DNA of 64,000 nt from a virus (taxonomy: Duplodnaviria; Heunggongvirae; Uroviricota; Caudoviricetes), in the IMG/VR virus record IMGVR_UViG_2636416131_000001, positions 32,831-96,830 of that record; one strand, 5' to 3'. Below are positions 233 to 53,552 of the stretch, piece after piece. Positions within the stretch are counted from its first letter, which is position 1, and the number at the start of each line of letters is the position of its first letter. The position numbers and the translations under genes were made by a program. The notes beneath the pieces were generated by a model. It had not been told where the DNA came from. It worked only from the letters and a program-made list of their open reading frames with translations, and ran no database searches.

Positions 233-1426
233 GTGACCTGGGACGATCACAAGAAGAATTTTGCTCGCCTGGCGCGAGATGGTGGTTACACCATCGCACA
301 GTATGCCGCCGAGTTTAATCTTAACCCTAATACTGCACGTCGTTATCTCCGTGCCTTCAAAGAAGACACCAGGACAGCGGACAGCCGCAAGCCAAATAAG
401 CCAGTCAGGAAGCCACTAAAAAGCATGATCATTGATCACTCTAATGATCAACATGCAGGTGATCACATTGCGGCTGAAATAGCGGAAAAACAAAGGGTTA
501 ATGCCGTTGTCAGTGCCGCAGTCGAGAATGCGAAGCGCCAAAATAAGCGCATAAATGATCGTTCAGATGATCATGACGTGATCACCCGCGCCCACCGGAC
601 CTTACGTGATCGCCTGGAACGCGACACCCTGGATGATGATGGTGAACGCTTTGAATTCGAAGCTGGCGATTACCTGATAGATAACGTTGAAGCGCGGAAG
701 GCCGCGCGCGCTATGTTGCGTCGTTCCGGAGCTGATGTTCTGGAAACCACTCTTCTGGAAAAGTCTCTTTCTCATCTCCTTATGCTGGAGAATGCCAGGG
801 ATACGTGTATTCGCTTGGTGCAGGAAATGCGCGATCAGCAAAAAGAAGATGATGAAGGTACTCCGCCTGAATACCGTATCGCGAGCATGCTAAACAGCTG
901 TTCCGCGCAGATAAGCAGCCTGATCAACACCATTTACAGCATCCGGAATAACTATCGAAAAGAAAGCCGGGAGGCGGAAAAGCACGCTTTGTCTATGGGG
1001 CAAGCTGGCATTGTTAAGCTGGCATACGAACGAAAGCGTGAAAATAACTGGTCAGTGCTGGAAGCAGCTGAATTCATCGAGGCGCATGGCGGGAAAGTGC
1101 CGCCCCTGATGCTGGAGCAAATCAAAGCCGATCTGCGTGCTCCTAAGACCAATACCGATGATGAGGAAAGGCAAACTGCCGTCGGTGGCCCTTCTCTTGA
1201 AGATCTGGACAAAGTTGCGCGAGAACGGGCCGCCAACCGCCGCGCCGATGCCGCATTGTGGATTGAGCAACGTAGGGAAGAAATCGCCGATATCGTTGAT
1301 ACAGGCGGTTATGGAGATGTTGATACTGAAGGTGTATCAAACGAACCATGGCTGGAACAAGACCTGGACGAAGACGAGGAGGAAGACGAAGAAGTTACCC
1401 GCAAGCTATACGGGGATGATGATTAA
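233..1426 (+). CDS. pacA: pacase/terminase subunit PacA
   Basis: 397 aa ORF; contains the pac hexamer cluster near its 5' end; stop overlaps pacB start at 1426. Confidence 0.9.
426..583. other. pac: pac packaging site: two clusters of TGATCA/TGATCG hexamers (4 + 3) within pacA
   Basis: TGATCA at 426, 433, 445, 460; TGATCG at 555; TGATCA at 567, 578; Dam GATC-containing hexamers typical of P1 pac. Confidence 0.8.
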
Positions 1427-2940
1427 TGGCCAGAAGTTGCGTAACGGATCCACGTTGGCGCGAGCTGGTGGCGCTATATCGTTATGACTGGATTGCGGCC
1501 GCTGATGTTTTGTTCGGCAAAACACCTACCTGGCAGCAGGATCTGATTATTGAGTCTGTGCAGGAACAGGGTAGCAAGACATCTGTTTCGTCTGGTCACG
1601 GTACCGGGAAATCAGACATGACTTCTATCATGATCATGTTGTTCATAATCATGTATCCCGGTGCCCGCGCCATTATCGTTGCGAACAAAATTCAGCAGGT
1701 AATGACCGGTATATTCAAGTACATCAAGATAAACTGGGCTACTGCCACCAGCCGTTTTCCATGGCTTGCTGATTATTTTGTTCTGACAGAAACCGCTTTC
1801 TATGAGGTTACTGGTAAAGGTGTATGGACTGTAGTACCGAAGGGCTTTCGTCTGGGAAGTGAAGAAGCTCTCGCCGGTGAACACGCAGATCATCTTCTGT
1901 ATATTATCGATGAAGCCTCCGGTGTCAGTGATAGAGCTTTCGGTATCATCACCGGTGCTCTTACCGGACAGGATAACCGCATCTTATTACTGTCACAGCC
2001 TACACGCCCAAGCGGCTATTTCTACGATACTCACCATAAACTGGCCAAGCGTCCTGGTAACCCTGATGGCGTTTATACGGCGATCACGCTTAACAGTGAG
2101 GAATCACCGCTGGTAACGCCAGCATTTATCAAAATGAAGCTGGCGGAGTACGGCGGGCGCGATAACCCTATGTACATGATTAAGGTACGCGGCCTATTCC
2201 CTAAATCACAGGATGGCTTCCTTCTTGGACGTGATGAGGTTGAACGTGCAACGCGGCGGAAAGTCAAGATTGCCAAAGGATGGGGCTGGCTTGCATGTGT
2301 GGACGTTGCTGGTGGTACGGGAAGGGATAAGTCCGTTATCAATATCATGATGGTGTCCGGCCAGAGAAATAAACGCCGTGTAATCAACTATCGAATGCTG
2401 GAATACACAGACGTTACAGAAACGCAGCTTGCCGCCAAAATTTTCGCAGAATGTAATCCTGAGCGATTCCCAAATATTACCATAGCGATAGACGGCGATG
2501 GCCTGGGTAAAGCAACGGCGGATCTGATGTACGAGTATTATGGTATTACCGTACAGCGTATACGCTGGGGTAAAAAGATGCATAGCCGTGAAGATAAGAG
2601 CCTGTACTTTGATAAACGTGCTTATGCCAACGTTCAAGCCGCAGAGGCCGTAAAATCTGGTCGTATGAGACTGGATAAGGGTAATGAAACTATTGAGGAA
2701 GCGTCGAAAATCCCTGTAGGGATTAACTCCGCAGGTCAATGGAAGGTGATGAGTAAGGAGGATATGAAGAAAAAACTCAACCTGCACTCACCAGACCATT
2801 GGGATACATATTGTTTCGCTATGCTGGCGGATTATGTTCCCCAGGACGAAGTGCTTAGCGTCGAAGACGAAGCGCAGGTTGATGAAGCTCTGGCATGGCT
2901 TAATGAATTAATATTTGCTCTAATAAATTGTGTTTTTTAA
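1426..2940 (+). CDS. pacB: pacase/terminase large subunit PacB
   Basis: 504 aa ORF translationally coupled to pacA; synteny pacA-pacB-c1. Confidence 0.88.
2914..2930 (+). promoter_or_regulatory. C1 operator-like site inside the 3' end of pacB
   Basis: TTTGCTCTAATAAATTG, 15/17 match to P1 operator consensus ATTGCTCTAATAAATTT; about 350 bp upstream of the icd-like ORF, the same spacing as the immI operator to icd. Confidence 0.5.
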
Positions 2941-3061
2941 CTGCCGATGTTACATTGAACCTGACCTCTTGCGCCTTGAGGCATTTTCGGTTTATGCTTA
3001 TCAGGCACCTCAGTAAAACGGGTGCCGGGATTGGAACCCCGGATAATGTCAAAGGCGACAC

Positions 3062-3084
3062 AGACGCCAAAAGCGTCTTTTTTT
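3062..3084 (+). terminator. rho-independent terminator after pacB
   Basis: hairpin agacgc-caaaa-gcgtct followed by T7 run. Confidence 0.55.
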
Positions 3085-3114
3085 GTGTCATGCCATCGCA
3101 CGGCCATACGTAGC

Positions 3115-3235
3115 GTTTAGCTCAGAGATCAATGGTAGTGCTGGCTGGGCTGCCGAAAGGCAGGCCGGTTCCCTTTGACGCCGGTAGTTCCAACCCAGTC
3201 AGTGCTACCGCCATTGAGATTGGAACCTCACGCGG
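3115..3235 (+). ncRNA. c4-like antisense RNA region (bounds approximate)
   Basis: Lies between an operator and an icd-like ORF as c4 does in immI; hairpin ctgcc-gaaa-ggcag; ggtagttccaa is complementary to downstream ttggaac...cggtagc in the icd leader. Confidence 0.3.
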
Positions 3236-3269
3236 TAGCTCCTTAACTTAGTCAAAGGAGGCTGCCATT

Positions 3270-3491
3270 ATGGCTACTATCCCTACCCCAACTCATCCTG
3301 AATTTATCTGGCGCTTTTACTCCTGCCAAAAACGTCACTATCACTTCGTTATTGCACCGACAGAAGATGAGGCCCGCTCTCAGCTTCCTGACGCCCCATG
3401 TATTTTCTCTGCCCGTTTTTCCACTGATTCACGCAATTCTCTCAGTTACTGGTGCCTCCCTGTTAACGCTTCTGTTCAGGAGGGGCTATGA
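3270..3491 (+). CDS. Icd-like protein, paralog of the immI Icd at 49825..50046
   Basis: 73 aa; shares EFIWRFYSC.K.HYHFVIA.TEDEARSQLPD.PCIF.ARFST.SRN.LSYW with the second copy; stop overlaps the downstream ant-like start. Confidence 0.7.
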   Translation: MATIPTPTHPEFIWRFYSCQKRHYHFVIAPTEDEARSQLPDAPCIFSARFSTDSRNSLSYWCLPVNASVQEGL

Positions 3492-4600
3492 GAACGTCAT
3501 TAGTCACCCGTGAAGAGATGATCGAGGCAATTGAACAGCACACTGCCTGTATCAGCACCAGGGATATTCCCAGTGTTATAGCCAACTACTTCATGATCAC
3601 TAAACAACTTTACCGGAGAAAGGACAAGAACGCGGTTCACCGTATCCTGCTGTCTGATATTCGCGAATACCTGCTCGAACAGGGTCATCTGAATTACGCA
3701 ACCGTCGCAGCCGAAGCACGCAAGGAGGCACACAGAATGAAAGCAACTAACGTTAAATCAGAAAAAATTCATGCACCTTCAGTTCAGGAATCGGAGCTGG
3801 TGGTTGTTCAGAATCAGTCTGATGAAATTCCCGTTCTGGAATGGCTGGGAGTGCGTGTAGTGACAACTGAGACTCTTGCTAAAGGGTATGGGACCGATGA
3901 AGCGAATATTCGTAAAAATTTGTCTCGCAACCCCGATCGCTTTGAAGAAGGTAAGCATTACTATCTCTTAACTGGTTCAAAATTAAAGGAATTTAAAAGG
4001 CTAGTGACTATTAGTCACTTGGTTAGCAAATATACAAGTCAGGTAATTCTCTGGGCCGAGCGCGGAGCGGCACGCATGTCTAAGATCGTGGACACAAATG
4101 AAGCATGGGCATTCTTTGAAAAACTGGAAGACAGCTACTTCCGGCAAAAAGAACAGCAACCGGTTGCAATCCCCCAAACATTACCAGAAGCCCTACGCCT
4201 GGCTGCCGAACTGGCTGAAAAAAAGCAGCTTCTGGAACAGAAAGCCCACCAGCTAAATCAGCAGCTGGTAGCCGCCGCTCCTAAGGTCGATTTTGCCGAC
4301 CGGGTATCAGTAGCTAAAGGGATCCTGATTGGGAATTTTGCAAAGGTTGTTGGACTTAAGCAAAACGCGCTGTTTGCCTGGTTACGGGAGAACGGCATCC
4401 TGATAGCGTCCGGTGGACGTAAAAATGTGCCGTTCCAGCAGTACATCAACGCGGGGTATTTCACGGTGAAAGAAGTGGTGCTGGATGATGAAGATGGCTA
4501 CCAGATACGGTTGACGCCTCAATTAACGGGTAAAGGCCAGCAGTGGTTGACGCGTAAACTGCTCGATGCTGGCTTGTTAAAACCGGTGGCGGTTGAATAA
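3488..4600 (+). CDS. Ant-like antirepressor paralog with a different central domain
   Basis: 370 aa; N-terminal ~90 aa and C-terminal ~150 aa (IPQTLPEALRLAAELAE...GKGQQWLTRKLLDAGLLKPVA) homologous to Ant1 at 50043..51086 and to the KilA C-terminus; central ~120 aa unrelated to Ant1. Confidence 0.75.
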   Translation: MRTSLVTREEMIEAIEQHTACISTRDIPSVIANYFMITKQLYRRKDKNAVHRILLSDIREYLLEQGHLNYATVAAEARKEAHRMKATNVKSEKIHAPSVQESELVVVQNQSDEIPVLEWLGVRVVTTETLAKGYGTDEANIRKNLSRNPDRFEEGKHYYLLTGSKLKEFKRLVTISHLVSKYTSQVILWAERGAARMSKIVDTNEAWAFFEKLEDSYFRQKEQQPVAIPQTLPEALRLAAELAEKKQLLEQKAHQLNQQLVAAAPKVDFADRVSVAKGILIGNFAKVVGLKQNALFAWLRENGILIASGGRKNVPFQQYINAGYFTVKEVVLDDEDGYQIRLTPQLTGKGQQWLTRKLLDAGLLKPVAVE

Positions 4601-4607
4601 TGGAAGA

Positions 4608-4629
4608 ATGCCCGGTTGATGCCGGGCAT
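4608..4629. terminator. bidirectional terminator hairpin between convergent ant-like gene and c1
   Basis: atgcccgg-ttgat-gccgggcat perfect 8 bp stem, flanked by A/T runs. Confidence 0.55.
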
Positions 4630-4632
4630 AAT

Positions 4633-5484
4633 TTATTGCGCGCTTTCGGGGTTGTCGTTTACTGGCTGCCCCTTCTTGGTTTTACGGCTGCGCGTAACTG
4701 ATGCGGCTGACTTAACCTTTTTCTCTTCGCGAGTGATGGCAATTTGTTTTTTTACATTTTCAATATCTGCCAGGCGATATATTTTTGCTTGCGGCCAGCG
4801 GTCGCAGATGATCGGTTCTATGGAGTCATAAAGGCTAAATTTTGCTTTTTCGAATTCACCGTTGATGATAATTCCATCACGGAGAGTTTCATCGCAGATA
4901 AACACGCCACACAGTGGCACATGGTAACTAACTGATTTGCCATCATTGTAGTTAGGGCTACTGGAAATGTAGTGGACGCGCAGCATTGTTTCGCTAAAGC
5001 CGTGTACGCGCATACGGAATTTTTCATCCTCCGGGTACTGCTTCATTAGCTCTTTTGTTGCTTCCAGGTTCTCTATGTATTTCGCACTGTGCTCATTGAT
5101 CCCTGCGCTTTTCTGGATGCGAATGTCCTTATCAATCAGATGAATAATGCGACCGGCGGTCATGTTGACGCTGTTCACAGCTTCTGTCTGATAAGTCGTA
5201 ACCTTACGCACACCGCGAAGGATGTTAGGCACTGGATATAAAATAGTCTTTGGGATATTGAGGTCTGGGTACTGTTCCAGTTCCCGCGCCATTAAAGTCC
5301 ATTTATCAATTTCAGCCTGAATGCTGTCAGTTTCTTTGAACGGTAGAACGACAACCGGGCGTACAGGACGACCGTCGCTGGCTGTATCAACGTGTTGGGC
5401 GCGTGCAACAGCTTTTTTTAGAAAGAGATCCCTGAAGCTGACGAACTCCTGGTACAGTTGTTCGCCGTAGACATAATTTATCAT
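4633..5484 (-). CDS. c1: C1 repressor of lytic functions
   Basis: 283 aa ORF beginning MINYVYGEQLYQEF; matches recalled P1 C1 in sequence and length; adjacent coi and operators. Confidence 0.95.
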   Translation of the reverse strand: MINYVYGEQLYQEFVSFRDLFLKKAVARAQHVDTASDGRPVRPVVVLPFKETDSIQAEIDKWTLMARELEQYPDLNIPKTILYPVPNILRGVRKVTTYQTEAVNSVNMTAGRIIHLIDKDIRIQKSAGINEHSAKYIENLEATKELMKQYPEDEKFRMRVHGFSETMLRVHYISSSPNYNDGKSVSYHVPLCGVFICDETLRDGIIINGEFEKAKFSLYDSIEPIICDRWPQAKIYRLADIENVKKQIAITREEKKVKSAASVTRSRKTKKGQPVNDNPESAQ

Positions 5485-5594
5485 TGATCCTCCTCCAGAA
5501 TTGACATGGCCAATAACGCCCGGCTGAGAAAACCGGTCATTACTGACCTATATTATAGAGGGATCAAACAAAAATAATAGATTTATTAGTGCAT

Positions 5595-5804
5595 TTATTG
5601 TGAGTCTAACTGGTTAGTTGCCATGAGATATTCGATTGTGTCAGTGAGGTCATCCAGGTCGTCTTGGGTGATGCGGTACTCCTGATTGGATATCTTTGAG
5701 TAGTGTTCAGCAATGGCGCGGGCAGCGTCGGTTTCGGCAGGGTCTACAGATAAAGCGTTAGAGCAATGTCTAACGTCGTCGATGGTTGGTTGAATGAAAG
5801 CCAT
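5595..5804 (-). CDS. coi: Coi, C1 inactivator
   Basis: 69 aa acidic ORF immediately upstream of c1, same strand. Confidence 0.8.
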   Translation of the reverse strand: MAFIQPTIDDVRHCSNALSVDPAETDAARAIAEHYSKISNQEYRITQDDLDDLTDTIEYLMATNQLDSQ

Positions 5805-6042
5805 AATTATGCCTCACTGTATTGACAACACAGAGCCTGAAGCTCTGACCTACTGTTTCACCCATGATCCATGCTGGGGTAATCTAACAACATTGCGCTG
5901 TGTGTAAGATGAGCAATGCATAGCTGTAATGCCGTTGTATAAGGTTTCCCTGTTTGCTCATTTCCTTCTGAGCCGCTCTACAACGCTGAAGACACATTAA
6001 ATAGTGAATCCAAAGTCGTATTACGTAACGGCGGCAAAACTA

Positions 6043-6059
6043 TAATTTATTAGAGCAAT
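6043..6059 (-). promoter_or_regulatory. C1 operator (Op99-type) upstream of coi/c1
   Basis: reverse complement reads ATTGCTCTAATAAATTA, 16/17 to consensus. Confidence 0.6.
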
Positions 6060-6125
6060 TGTCAAACAACTATGAAAAACAATCCAGTTTTTGGCTGGTG
6101 GAGTGGGATTTTTCTCTCAAAATTT

Positions 6126-6142
6126 ATTGCTCTAATAATTCT
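6126..6142 (+). promoter_or_regulatory. C1 operator-like site between immC and loxP
   Basis: ATTGCTCTAATAATTCT, 15/17 with perfect ATTGCTCTAAT core. Confidence 0.55.
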
Positions 6143-6185
6143 TGATTTTTATGCGCAGCTGGACGTAAACTCCTCTTCGGACCTA

Positions 6186-6219
6186 ATAACTTCGTATAGC
6201 ATACATTATACGAAGTTAT
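6186..6219. other. loxP: loxP site-specific recombination site
   Basis: exact 34 bp ATAACTTCGTATA-GCATACAT-TATACGAAGTTAT. Confidence 0.98.
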
Positions 6220-6408
6220 CTTAAGGGTTATTGAACATGATCAATTTACCTGTAAATCCATACAGTTCAATACCTTATCAGGTCAAATAGTGATCACTTG
6301 ATCATTTGATCAAGGTTGCGCTACGTAAAATCTGTGAAATGTTGGCAGTGTTTGTGCTCCAGATTTCGCGTAGCGCACTTAGCACCACCAATCAATCAGA
6401 GGTGAAAA

Positions 6409-22206: not shown

Positions 22207-22223
22207 ATTGCTCTAATTAATTT
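22207..22223 (+). promoter_or_regulatory. C1 operator upstream of ssb
   Basis: ATTGCTCTAATTAATTT, 16/17. Confidence 0.65.
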
Positions 22224-49493: not shown

Positions 49494-49510
49494 AATGCTC
49501 TAATAAATTT
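49494..49510 (+). promoter_or_regulatory. C1 operator (Op51-type) upstream of c4
   Basis: AATGCTCTAATAAATTT, 16/17. Confidence 0.65.
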
Positions 49511-49689
49511 GTATTTTTAAGTCACGAATGCTATCTTTTCGCATCATATTGACCTTTTAATCGTTCAGGCTTATAGTTCCGCCGTCGTAGCAAATTCTGC
49601 GACCAGGTTTGACAGCCTGAATGATTGTGCGGACAACCGCAGATTTCCGATATTGCGGTATTTTTGTGTCCGTTAAACCGCGTTACGCC

Positions 49690-49790
49690 CAAATTATGGT
49701 GGGGCGTGATGGGGAGGCTTCGGCCTGCTGGTTTCACAATCGCCAGTCTGTCAACCCTGTCACGTCCTGCCACCTGTTTGACAGCGGGTA
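49690..49790 (+). ncRNA. c4: c4 antisense repressor RNA region (bounds approximate)
   Basis: between operator and icd; UUCG-loop hairpin aggc-ttcg-gcct; segments complementary to the icd leader. Confidence 0.4.
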
Positions 49791-49824
49791 GCAGGTTGTT
49801 AAACCTGATTGTGAGGCCGTAACT

Positions 49825-50046
49825 ATGGTTAATGCCAATCCTTGCGCACGCCAAGAATTCATCTGGCGTTTCTATTCCTGTAAAAAACACCACTATCACT
49901 TCGTTATCGCAGCAACAGAAGACGAAGCACGCTCTCAATTGCCTGACGGCCCCTGCATTTTTACTGCCCGTTTTTCAACTAACTCGCGCAATCCACTTAG
50001 TTACTGGAGCCTCCCCTTCTCTGCCGACGTTCAGGGGGGTTTATGA
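49825..50046 (+). CDS. icd: Icd, cell-division inhibitor
   Basis: 73 aa; stop overlaps ant1 start; immI synteny. Confidence 0.8.
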   Translation: MVNANPCARQEFIWRFYSCKKHHYHFVIAATEDEARSQLPDGPCIFTARFSTNSRNPLSYWSLPFSADVQGGL

Positions 50047-51086
50047 AAAAACCTCTCGTCACCCGTAATGACATAGCCGAAGCGATCGCCCTGCATACTG
50101 CCTGTATGCCGACACGGGAGATCCCCGGCGCAATTGCCAACTATTTCATGATAACCAGACGTTTTTATACCCGAACAGATAAGGCTGTGATCAACAAGCT
50201 ACTGATAGCCGAGATCAGGGATTATTTGATTGAACAAGGACGTCTACGTTACGCAACAGTGGCAGCAGAAATGAGAAAGGAGGCACATAGAATGACCGGT
50301 AATAATTTGAATGTTGAAAAAACAGCACCTGTTACGTCAGCTACGCCAGCACCAGCCGTGAATATCATCCCCAACACCGGAGACACAATCGACAGCCTGA
50401 CACTGTTAAAGATGGTCAATGAAGCGCGTAAGTTATGTGGGGAACCAGAGGTTCGGAACAACAAATTCATCGAAAAAATACTCGACGAATTAGAAGGTGA
50501 GGACGGTTACACAAAAAGTGCAACCGTGCCGCCAGGTGGCGGTACGCCTATGGTTGTCATAACCATGACCTACAAACAAGCCCTGCGAGTCGCCGCACGC
50601 GAATCAAAAGCCGTCCGCCGTTCGCTGATCGACAAACTGGAAGAATTGCAGCAGGCAAACTCCCCTACCCCATCGATCCCCCAAACATTACCAGAAGCTC
50701 TACGCCTGGCTGCCGAGTTAGCAGAACAGAAAATGCAGCTGGAACAACAGCTGGTGGCCGCTGCCCCTAAAGTCGATTTTGCCGACCGGGTATCAGTGGC
50801 TAATGGAATCCTGATCGGGAACTTTGCAAAGGTCGTTGGACTTAAGCAAAACGCCCTTTTCTCATGGTTGCGCCAGAATGGCATTCTCATGGCTTTTGGA
50901 GCGCGCAAAAACGTACCGCGCCAACAGTACATCAACGCCGGGTATTTCACGGTGAAAGAAGTGGTGCTGGATGATGAAAATGGCTACCAGATACGGCTGA
51001 CGCCCCAATTAACGGGTAAAGGCCAGCAGTGGTTAACTCGCAAGCTACTTGATGCTGGTTTGTTAAAACCAGTAGCAATAGGTTAA
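50043..51086 (+). CDS. ant1: Ant1 antirepressor (Ant2 expected from an internal in-frame start)
   Basis: 347 aa; C-terminal antirepressor domain shared with KilA and the ant-like paralog. Confidence 0.88.
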   Translation: MKKPLVTRNDIAEAIALHTACMPTREIPGAIANYFMITRRFYTRTDKAVINKLLIAEIRDYLIEQGRLRYATVAAEMRKEAHRMTGNNLNVEKTAPVTSATPAPAVNIIPNTGDTIDSLTLLKMVNEARKLCGEPEVRNNKFIEKILDELEGEDGYTKSATVPPGGGTPMVVITMTYKQALRVAARESKAVRRSLIDKLEELQQANSPTPSIPQTLPEALRLAAELAEQKMQLEQQLVAAAPKVDFADRVSVANGILIGNFAKVVGLKQNALFSWLRQNGILMAFGARKNVPRQQYINAGYFTVKEVVLDDENGYQIRLTPQLTGKGQQWLTRKLLDAGLLKPVAIG

Positions 51087-53222: not shown

Positions 53223-53345
53223 TACAATCGTTGCGGGTGCTTGAGGCTATCTGCTTCAGGCATTACCCGAAAAGCAGATAGAAGAAAGCCCCAGATAACA
53301 TTACGCGTCCTGCAAGACGCTTAACATTAATCTGAGGCCATATCT

Positions 53346-53552
53346 ATGCTTAGCATACGTAGATTAGCCTCTTACCGACCAAAAGGTCAAGGAGAAGCAG
53401 GCTATGAAGCAGCAAAAAGCGATGTTAATCGCTCTGATCGTCATCTGTTTAACCGTCATTGTGACGGCACTGGTAACGAGGAAAGACCTCTGCGAGGTAC
53501 GAATCCGAACCGGCCAGACGGAGGTCACTGTCTTCACAGCCTACGAATCTGA
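53346..53552 (+). CDS. mok-like overlapping reading frame of the hok locus
   Basis: 68 aa ORF starting upstream of and overlapping hok in another frame. Confidence 0.35.
   Translation: MLSIRRLASYRPKGQGEAGYEAAKSDVNRSDRHLFNRHCDGTGNEERPLRGTNPNRPDGGHCLHSLRI

Follow-up and report, generated by a model that had tools for sequence, protein, structure and literature searches.

An immI-like cassette with an IsrK-type leader and a c4-type RNA lies between pacB and c1 of a P1-like phage genome

We analyzed a stretch of 64,000 nucleotides (nt) from the IMG/VR virus record IMGVR_UViG_2636416131_000001 (positions 32,831 to 96,830 of the record, hereafter the window), in which an antirepressor cassette resembling the immunity locus immI of phage P1 sits between pacB and the repressor gene c1. 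The gene order in the first 8 kb of the window (pacA, pacB, then convergent c1 and coi, then cre) is that of P1. Homology to P1 ends at position 2908 and restarts at 4634, and the 1,725 bp in between (2909-4633) replace the 24 bp that separate the pacB stop from the c1 stop in P1. The G+C content of the inserted cassette is 48.4%, similar to that of its neighborhood, and we found no flanking repeats or transposase genes around the insertion. The features of the cassette, of its neighbor c1 and of the immI locus that also resides in the window are given below, in window coordinates.

2914-2930, plus strand: C1 operator-like 17-mer TTTGCTCTAATAAATTG, with two mismatches to the consensus ATTGCTCTAATAAATTT.
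2928-2956, plus strand: putative C1-controlled promoter at the position of P1 P2c4/P51a (-35 TTGTGT at 2928-2933, 17-nt spacer, TG at 2948-2949, -10 TACATT at 2951-2956).
2969-2998, plus strand: promoter of the IsrK-type leader at the position of P1 P1c4/P51b (-35 TTGCGC at 2969-2974, 18-nt spacer, -10 TATGCT at 2993-2998, +1 at 3005).
3005-3083, plus strand: IsrK-type leader RNA (Rfam isrK RF01394, 61.9 bits against a gathering score of 50, model positions 1-77).
3128-3215, plus strand: c4-type antisense RNA (Rfam C4 RF01695, 77.1 bits against a gathering score of 45, model positions 1-87, full length).
3219-3260, plus strand: target sites in the icd leader, a2 (ATTGGAAC, 3219-3226) and b2 (GTCAAAGG, 3251-3258).
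3270-3491, plus strand: icd-like gene, 73 amino acids (81% identity to the resident Icd over 63 aligned residues; WP_001515201.1 in plasmid pEC6030_3).
3488-4600, plus strand: ant1-like gene, 370 amino acids (Ant1-type N terminus, ORF6N, linker, KilAC/ANT; WP_032332870.1).
3737-4600, plus strand: ant2-like nested in-frame start (Met84), with a Shine-Dalgarno sequence AAGGAGG at 3724-3730 as in P1 ant2.
3880-4120, plus strand: hypervariable patch in ORF6N (about residues 135-195, some 60 amino acids), with a nucleotide identity of 45-72% to other P1-context cassettes.
4608-4629, no strand assigned: GC-rich hairpin where the ant-like gene and c1 converge (9 pairs, 6 of them GC, in the terminator scan).
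4633-5484, minus strand: c1 repressor gene (from the list of open reading frames (ORFs) and the annotation of P1, RCS47 and RefSeq), the presumed target of Ant and binder of the operator.
49494-51086, plus strand: resident immI (operator 49494-49510, a1b1 leader 49571-49623, c4 49692-49777, icd 49825-50046, ant1 50043-51086).

The RNA half of the cassette begins with the IsrK-type leader, which sits where the immI locus of P1 has its a1/b1 leader. It carries a copy of the a site (a1, ATTGGAAC, 3030-3037) inside a hairpin loop and a copy of the b site (b1, GTCAAAGG, 3048-3055), and the terminator scan places an intrinsic terminator at its end (stem 3062-3078, followed by T7). The c4-type RNA that follows, whose mature form is predicted at about 3134-3212, outscores the resident c4 on the Rfam C4 model (77.1 versus 68.4 bits). 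Its predicted fold (-46.5 kcal/mol) has the architecture of P1 c4, in which hairpin 2 bears b' (CCTTTGAC, 3172-3179) in its loop and the single-stranded linker contains a' (GTTCCAA, 3187-3193). These two segments are perfect complements, of 7 and 8 nt, of a2 and b2, and the cognate pairing extends over 7-8 contiguous bp at each of a1, a2, b1, and b2, at duplex energies of -8.8 to -13.4 kcal/mol (-8.8 kcal/mol for a and -12.7 kcal/mol for b at the target sites). The b2 site overlaps the Shine-Dalgarno sequence of icd (AAGGAGG, 3254-3260), 9 nt upstream of the ATG at 3270.

One annotation coincides with this RNA gene. RefSeq places a coding sequence for a 39-amino-acid "ash family protein" exactly on the c4-type RNA gene (3132-3251). 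The translation reaches 32.2 bits against a threshold of 26 on the Pfam family Phage_ASH (PF10554), over profile positions 49-86 only, and positions 6-34 of the profile weakly match another frame, in an ORF over isrK (2928-3113). The "ash family protein" is most likely an RNA gene read as a protein, and the Ash family as such appears to consist of translated isrK-c4 RNA.

The protein half comprises the icd-like and ant-like genes, which overlap by the icd stop and the ant start (ATGA, 3488-3491). The Icd-like protein passes the NCBIfam model phage_ICD_like (49.8 bits against 25). The Ant-like protein matches the PHROG 63 family "anti-repressor Ant" (E-value 3.8e-131) and aligns with the resident Ant1 over its full length at 55% identity, very unevenly distributed: 51 of 86 residues are identical at the N terminus (59%, residues 1-86) and 123 of 144 at the C terminus (85%, residues 227-370), but only 21 of 95 in the center (22%, residues 111-205). 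The center is an ORF6N domain (Pfam PF10543, residues 117-200, E-value 9e-17). Both ORF6N (61.6 bits against 27.8) and KilAC/ANT (PF03374, 109.7 bits against 25.3) are well above their Pfam thresholds. Ant1 has KilAC/ANT without ORF6N, and its center gave no Pfam match to ORF6N even at an E-value of 10 or below. Both proteins match PHROG 1726 over the same region of the profile, so the two centers may be distantly homologous. NCBIfam has no model for the Ant-like protein, and a PDB sequence search returned only chance-level matches, to the ribosomal protein L9. The internal start is conserved (AAGGAGGCACACAGAATG in the cassette, AAGGAGGCACATAGAATG in the resident ant).

No ORF of the cassette is disrupted. 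The region from 1200 to 6241 is identical, save for base 2909, to plasmid pEC6030_3 of Escherichia coli EC6030 (NZ_CP183340.1), where both proteins are annotated. Of the 23 P1-context loci that have the complete ant region on one contig, about 20 encode an Ant-like protein of 364-372 amino acids; the others are truncated. In the 16 unique full-length P1-context proteins, residues 1-110 and 206-370 are 96-100% identical.

The operator-like 17-mer begins 4 nt past the pacB stop used in relatives and overlaps the -35 element of the first promoter. Six sites in the window have at most two mismatches to the operator consensus, against 0.00 expected from 100 shuffles. Five of them lie at or near annotated P1 operators (the imm C/cre region, Oc4, and OrepL), and the sixth (22207-22223) is outside that comparison. 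The operator core TTGCTCTAAT[A/G]AATTG is kept in 28 of 28 P1-context cassettes, and positions 2910-2944 are 86% identical to the OrepL/PkilA region of P1. The presence of this operator in all 28 P1-context loci, and not in phage D6, would tie the module to the P1 repressor. The C1-controlled promoter was assigned by eye, from position only, in a collinear alignment with P1 Oc4/P2c4; a consensus scan of 2900-3010 reported no promoter at its thresholds. For the leader promoter, a TTGnnn-17/18-TAnnnT arrangement ending exactly 6 nt upstream of the IsrK 5' G was found in 98 of 98 related loci (those with a parseable IsrK 5' end, from 100 unique sequences), with variable hexamers.

The single base that differs from pEC6030_3 touches this junction. 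Base 2909 is T in the window and G in the plasmid, which turns the pacB stop TGA into TTA; PacB would therefore be extended by 10 codons, through the C1 operator, to a TAA at 2938-2940. A TGA or TAA is kept at the position of the pacB stop in all 28 other P1-context loci.

An earlier note on this DNA, made from the letters alone, had described an immI-like unit between pacB and c1, with a C1 operator-like 17-mer, a structured c4-like leader with internal complementarity, a 73-residue Icd paralog, and an Ant paralog with Ant1-like ends around a different center. Each of these elements was recovered where the note had placed it, and the folding of the c4 region and its pairing with the icd-like leader, which the note had proposed as a check, came out in its favor. 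It overlooked the IsrK-type leader with a1/b1 and terminator, the constitutive promoter of that leader, and the putative terminator hairpin at 4608-4629. The domain shuffling it had suggested for Ant would draw on a standard pool, since antirepressors that combine ORF6N with KilAC are common (the central domain has matches in 351 phage records, most of them annotated as antirepressors).

The same note had taken the cassette for a paralog of the resident immI, and this did not hold. The leader, c4, and 5' part of icd (2961-3418) share 84% identity with the IsrK-type module of D6, and two segments (3297-3740 and 4169-4590) are 70% and 81% identical at the nucleotide level to icd/ant of P1. The regulatory regions of the cassette and of the resident immI show little identity when aligned. 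The cassette is, by these alignments, a mosaic of a D6/IsrK-type RNA half, P1-like ant ends, and an OrepL-like operator region. A simple duplication of the resident immI is ruled out, since the RNA half is of the D6/IsrK type and the likeness to P1 is confined to the ant ends.

The resident immI is itself a hybrid of P1 and P7 over 49571-49830, with a sites of the P1 type (TTGACAG / CTGTCAA) and b sites of the P7 type (GATTGTGA / TCACAATC), as in phage JL22. Phages 673R5 and D6 carry further b alleles, and the classical immI is therefore multi-allelic as well. The a and b sites of the cassette (TTGGAAC and GTCAAAGG) are unrelated to those of the resident (TTGACAG and GATTGTGA). Cognate duplexes have energies of -8.8 to -15.1 kcal/mol, whereas cross duplexes reach -4.1 to -8.7 kcal/mol (means for shuffled sequences, -5.9 to -7.7 kcal/mol), and the bipartite a-b target motif occurs in the cassette and nowhere else in the 64 kb. 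Because the sites are wholly different, no cross-reaction between the two switches is predicted; we rejected regulation of either module by the c4 RNA of the other, as the non-cognate energies are at the level of shuffled sequences and the bipartite motif is restricted to the cassette.

Carriage of more than one such module is seen elsewhere. All three sequenced phages with the cassette (RCS47, JL22, and 673R5) keep a resident immI with different a/b alleles. D6 (loci L005, 2502-2712, and L131, 2508-2714) has two separate c4-icd-antirepressor modules, one of the P1 type with a1b1 beside repL and one of the IsrK type elsewhere. Two IMG/VR loci contain a tandem isrK-C4-isrK-C4 arrangement (L023, 3165-3716; L104, 7631-8294), and the alleles of the two L104 modules differ. 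Judging from D6 and these two loci, module stacking is recurrent. In plasmid p13C1065T-3 we found a single ant-like match; resistance regions have replaced the P1 backbone there, and the plasmid is therefore uninformative as to whether the cassette substitutes for immI.

The diversity of the a and b sites was followed in IMG/VR, where a scan for the invariant IsrK core returned 120 loci, 98 of them unique and parseable. These 98 loci contain 14 a alleles and 28 b alleles in 35 combinations. Of the cognate a1, a2, b1, and b2 sites, 99-100% pair over at least 7 contiguous bp, versus 1-31% of non-cognate ones. A MAFFT alignment of one sequence per allele combination (35), made without reference to the structure, shows the a1-a' helix to be 99.2% paired, with both partners changed in five of its seven pairs. 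The covariation score was reached by none of 500 shuffles, for the structure in which a1/b1 pair with c4 as well as for that in which c4 pairs with a2/b2.

The same holds within one locus. The P1-context cassettes alone comprise five allele combinations, counting the window, and cassettes at the same locus differ in their alleles, with the three copies of each site changing together and always matching within a cassette. The RCS47 cassette has ATTGAGAC at a1/a2 and GTCTCAA at a', with the b sites of the window; JL22 and D6 have the same a sites (ATTGAGAC, a' GTCTCAA) with GCAAAAGG / CCTTTTGC at b; and the 673R5 cassette has a third a allele and a third b allele. The exact allele pair of the window (a of the GGAA type, b GTCAAAGG) is also found away from pacB, in four loci, and the upstream region of at least two of these (L015 and L124) is of the D6 type. 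The covariation of a2/b2 with c4 inside the cassette shows that self-regulation is under selection.

About 30 of the IMG/VR isrK-C4 loci (for example L010, L016, and L021) have a short ORF (MANRKQQRAY...) in place of icd, and loci of this type have no long ORF within 2.6 kb downstream. They are probably a different kind of element with the same RNA switch.

A second kind of variation lies in the protein. The patch within ORF6N has sharp edges, with flanks mostly 85-100% identical at the DNA level, and it falls into seven protein types that are 52-82% identical pairwise among the 16 unique full-length P1-context Ant-like proteins. The neighboring C1 is identical at 281-283 of 283 residues in the loci with a complete c1, with one exception (274 of 283). 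The earlier note had suggested an antirepressor of altered specificity, but the center varies beside a constant C1 and is therefore not matched to variants of C1. Nor is the ORF6N type linked to the c4 allele, from which it reassorts independently, so that the patch, in these comparisons, follows neither C1 nor the RNA code.

The cassette is neither rare nor unannotated. It is present in phages RCS47, JL22, and vB_EcoM-673R5 and in 250 of 5,426 complete E. coli genomes. In PLSDB, 269 junctions are occupied (at least 80% of 2700-4800 in one piece) versus 314 uninterrupted P1-type junctions, or about 46% occupancy among the informative P1-like plasmids. The comparison with P1 and P7 that the earlier note had proposed found it in neither phage. 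That note had also allowed for the cassette being a universal and already annotated part of P1-like genomes with a known function, or for its ORFs being disabled: it is not universal and its ORFs are intact, but it is annotated, in RefSeq among others. RefSeq names the Icd-like protein and labels the Ant-like one "phage antirepressor KilAC domain-containing protein", and the RCS47 record annotates "ant". At the gene level it has therefore been recorded already. Venturini et al. 2019 (PMC6906374) mention the insertion of an ant gene and two short ORFs at this junction, "as in RCS47", and a second c4/icd region was noted in a D6-like prophage (PMC6799933). The literature searched contains no paper describing the RNA genes, specificity or function of the cassette. 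Apparently new relative to the searchable papers are the full RNA anatomy of the cassette and the prediction that it is independent of the resident immI, the multi-allelic a/b code and its three-way covariation, and the hypervariable ORF6N patch.

In the immediate neighborhood, the ant-like operon and c1 converge on the single hairpin at 4608-4629, which has weak T runs on both strands and is possibly a two-way terminator. The surrounding sequence (4600-4659) is 100% conserved across the cassettes compared. Read-through from a de-repressed cassette would run antisense to c1, a possible reinforcing interference. Elsewhere in the window, a full-length sok antitoxin RNA (53235-53409; Rfam RF01794, 114.9 bits) indicates a hok/sok-type toxin-antitoxin locus on the plasmid.

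In P1 immI, c4 is cut from a precursor by RNase P, and Ant1/Ant2 bind and inactivate C1. We modeled the action of the cassette on the annotation and general knowledge of this locus, and the role of the leader on experiments with the Gifsy-1 prophage; RNA processing, the decoy role, and inactivation of C1 by the Ant-like protein are thus put forward by analogy. The constitutive promoter, with its +1 at 3005, would produce the leader, most transcripts ending at the IsrK terminator. Those that read through would contain the c4-type RNA, to be excised as in P1. The b' loop and a' linker of c4 would then pair with b2 and a2 and cover the ribosome-binding site of icd. Because ant starts within the icd stop (ATGA), a block on icd translation should also block synthesis of the Ant1/Ant2-like proteins. 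Through its a1/b1 sites the leader probably serves as a decoy that captures c4, either within the same transcript or as a separate small RNA, and would set a threshold, as has been shown for IsrK of Gifsy-1. When C1 falls, the operator-controlled upstream promoter would add transcription, and Ant, once made, would inactivate C1. A lysogen with two c4 RNAs would be expected to silence incoming phages of either address; the antirepressor of an infecting phage would escape silencing by a prophage with the other address only. This last prediction assumes that the Ant-like protein acts on C1.

In our preferred reading, the cassette works as an accessory immunity module of the P1 immI / IsrK-c4 kind, and a C1 operator has brought it into the P1 circuit. 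We regard this as rather probable; the second antirepressor switch is real and, as the pairing and conservation of its parts suggest, probably functional. Four points weigh against it. The upstream C1-controlled promoter is weak, assigned by eye, and below the threshold of the consensus scan. The b1-b' helix is only 43% paired on the MAFFT alignment, a low score that comes from register shifts, so that its support is from the alignment-free test only. The minimum-energy fold of 3005-3290 pairs a1/b1 with a'/b' of c4 in cis and breaks the c4 stem, which makes the amount of free c4 uncertain. Finally, the center of Ant varies and C1 does not, and C1 may therefore not be the sole target of Ant, or no target at all.

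This last point leads to a reading in which the RNA control works as described and the Ant-like protein does not act on C1. It would act on the repressors of other resident prophages (D6-like plasmids or lambdoid phages), or serve as a Roi/KilA-type DNA-binding regulator or in host killing. The role of the module would then lie in cross-talk among mobile elements and not in the lysis-lysogeny switch of P1 itself. The seven patch types beside an invariant C1 fit such a role, ORF6N and KilAC antirepressors are common in Stx, other lambdoid, and Gram-positive phages, some records call the protein "DNA binding protein Roi", and the KilA protein of P1 has a KilAC domain yet is not known as a C1 antagonist. 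That the patch tracks neither C1 nor the c4 allele keeps another or an additional target in play. The first 110 and last 165 residues are, however, P1-Ant1-like and nearly invariant, and such ends are absent from the D6 antirepressors (13 of 83 and 36 of 140 identities). The nested Ant1/Ant2 starts are kept, and the module stands under a C1 operator adjoining c1 in 28 of 28 loci. On balance we hold a non-C1 target to be unlikely. A somewhat doubtful proposal, compatible with our preferred one, makes the c4-type RNA the main selected product, providing immunity in trans against D6-like or IsrK-type phages with the same address, with icd and ant carried along as the ancestral target. It draws on the loci outside the pacB context that share the allele pair of the window, including those with a D6-type upstream region, and on the D6 module, whose RNA part is 84-92% identical. 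A pure RNA immunity gene would need no Ant, whereas the Ant ORF is full length with strongly conserved ends in most loci; nor does it account for a2/b2 covarying with c4 within the cassette. The cassette could also be an inert leftover of recombination with a D6-like phage. A few copies do have a truncated ant (254-257 amino acids, or split), and its absence from P1, P7, and about half of the P1-like plasmids means that it is dispensable. We consider this very improbable in view of the compensatory changes at three sites among cassettes of this very locus, the conserved operator and promoters, and the ORFs that are intact in most copies, with Ant ends 96-100% identical; a decayed remnant is rejected on the same grounds.

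We tentatively see in IsrK/c4 a combinatorial address system of P1-like and D6-like phage-plasmids and many lambdoid prophages. This possible scheme has at least 14 x 28 alleles defining immunity groups, non-cross-reacting modules stacked in one genome, and the ORF6N patch as a second, protein-level specificity that diversifies apart from C1 and the RNA code. If so, stacking would let a phage escape silencing by a resident prophage and widen the range of intruders that it silences, and the pacB/c1 cassette would be one place where a frequency-dependent arms race between phage-plasmids that circulate together becomes visible. In E. coli and Salmonella, resistance genes are widely carried by P1-like phage-plasmids, whose coexistence with, exclusion of, and induction of one another depend on immunity specificity, which in P1 and P7 is set by the c4 RNA rather than by the repressor. 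If about half of the P1-like elements carry a second, independent, multi-allelic switch, the two-type picture of P1/P7 heteroimmunity is too simple, and predicting superinfection or co-residence would require the RNA address of both modules. The analysis also links IsrK and c4, which a 2025 review lists as separate, unconnected entries, and flags a probable mis-annotation, the c4 RNA gene named "ash family protein".

The cassette is best classed as one more antirepressor module under c4/IsrK control; it occupies a second locus in its P1-like genome and occurs in hundreds of public records. As far as sequence can tell, it has every defining feature of the P1-type immI, the IsrK family, and the ORF6N-KilAC antirepressors. 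With the immI of P1 and P7 it shares the order of elements (Oc4, P51a/b, a1/b1, c4, a2/b2, icd, ant1/ant2), an operator overlapping the first -35 element, the c4 fold and the placement of b' (hairpin-2 loop) and a' (linker) within it, the b2 site over the icd ribosome-binding site, the icd/ant overlap, and the nested ant2 start; Icd is 81% identical, and the N and C termini of Ant are 59% and 85% identical. It differs in lying in the pacB/c1 spacer, not between sim and kilA, in having a leader of the Rfam isrK family in place of the Rfam c4-a1b1 leader, in its unrelated a/b sequences, in the ORF6N center of Ant, and in the low nucleotide similarity of its RNA part to the resident locus.

The RNA part is closer to the IsrK-type module of D6 (orf83/orf82), in which the leader, c4, and 5' icd are 84-92% identical to the cassette, and D6-like contigs draw on the same allele series (a sites of the GAGA or GGAA type, b sites GCAAAAGG or GTCAAAGG). 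Unlike the cassette, the D6 module has no upstream C1 operator and a different genomic position, and its antirepressor (313 amino acids) has an unrelated N terminus and is weakly related elsewhere.

The isrK-orf45-anrP locus of Gifsy-1 likewise has an IsrK with a terminator, partial read-through, and a translationally coupled antirepressor, and its downstream RNA contains a segment complementary to the middle of IsrK, comparable to a1/b1 versus a'/b' in the cassette. Experiments of Hershko-Shalev et al. 2016 (PMC4825925) with Gifsy-1 showed that short IsrK supplied in trans raises antirepressor translation about 140-fold by pairing with the orf45 region that follows it; such activation in trans and Hfq binding have been shown for Gifsy-1 only. 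The IsrK terminator is partly read through, the orf45 region yields a processed RNA of about 80 nt, and the nucleotide sequence of orf45 is conserved where its amino-acid sequence is not (PMC4825925). Rfam C4 directly follows isrK in eight of eight related loci that we scanned. This suggests to us that orf45 is the counterpart of c4, with IsrK a decoy bearing a1/b1, and the pairing of a1/b1 with a'/b' in the minimum-energy fold of 3005-3290 agrees with such a role. The Gifsy-1 locus differs from the cassette in that the position of c4 is treated as the coding orf45, no separate icd is described, a C1 operator is lacking, and the antirepressor acts on a lambdoid-type repressor, unlike the presumed C1 target here.

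At the protein level, the Ant-like protein resembles other antirepressors with ORF6N and KilAC in having both Pfam domains above their gathering scores. It is set apart from them by an extra Ant1-specific N-terminal region of about 110 amino acids and by the Ant2-type internal start, each of which, among the antirepressors at the loci compared, occurs in P1-context genes only.

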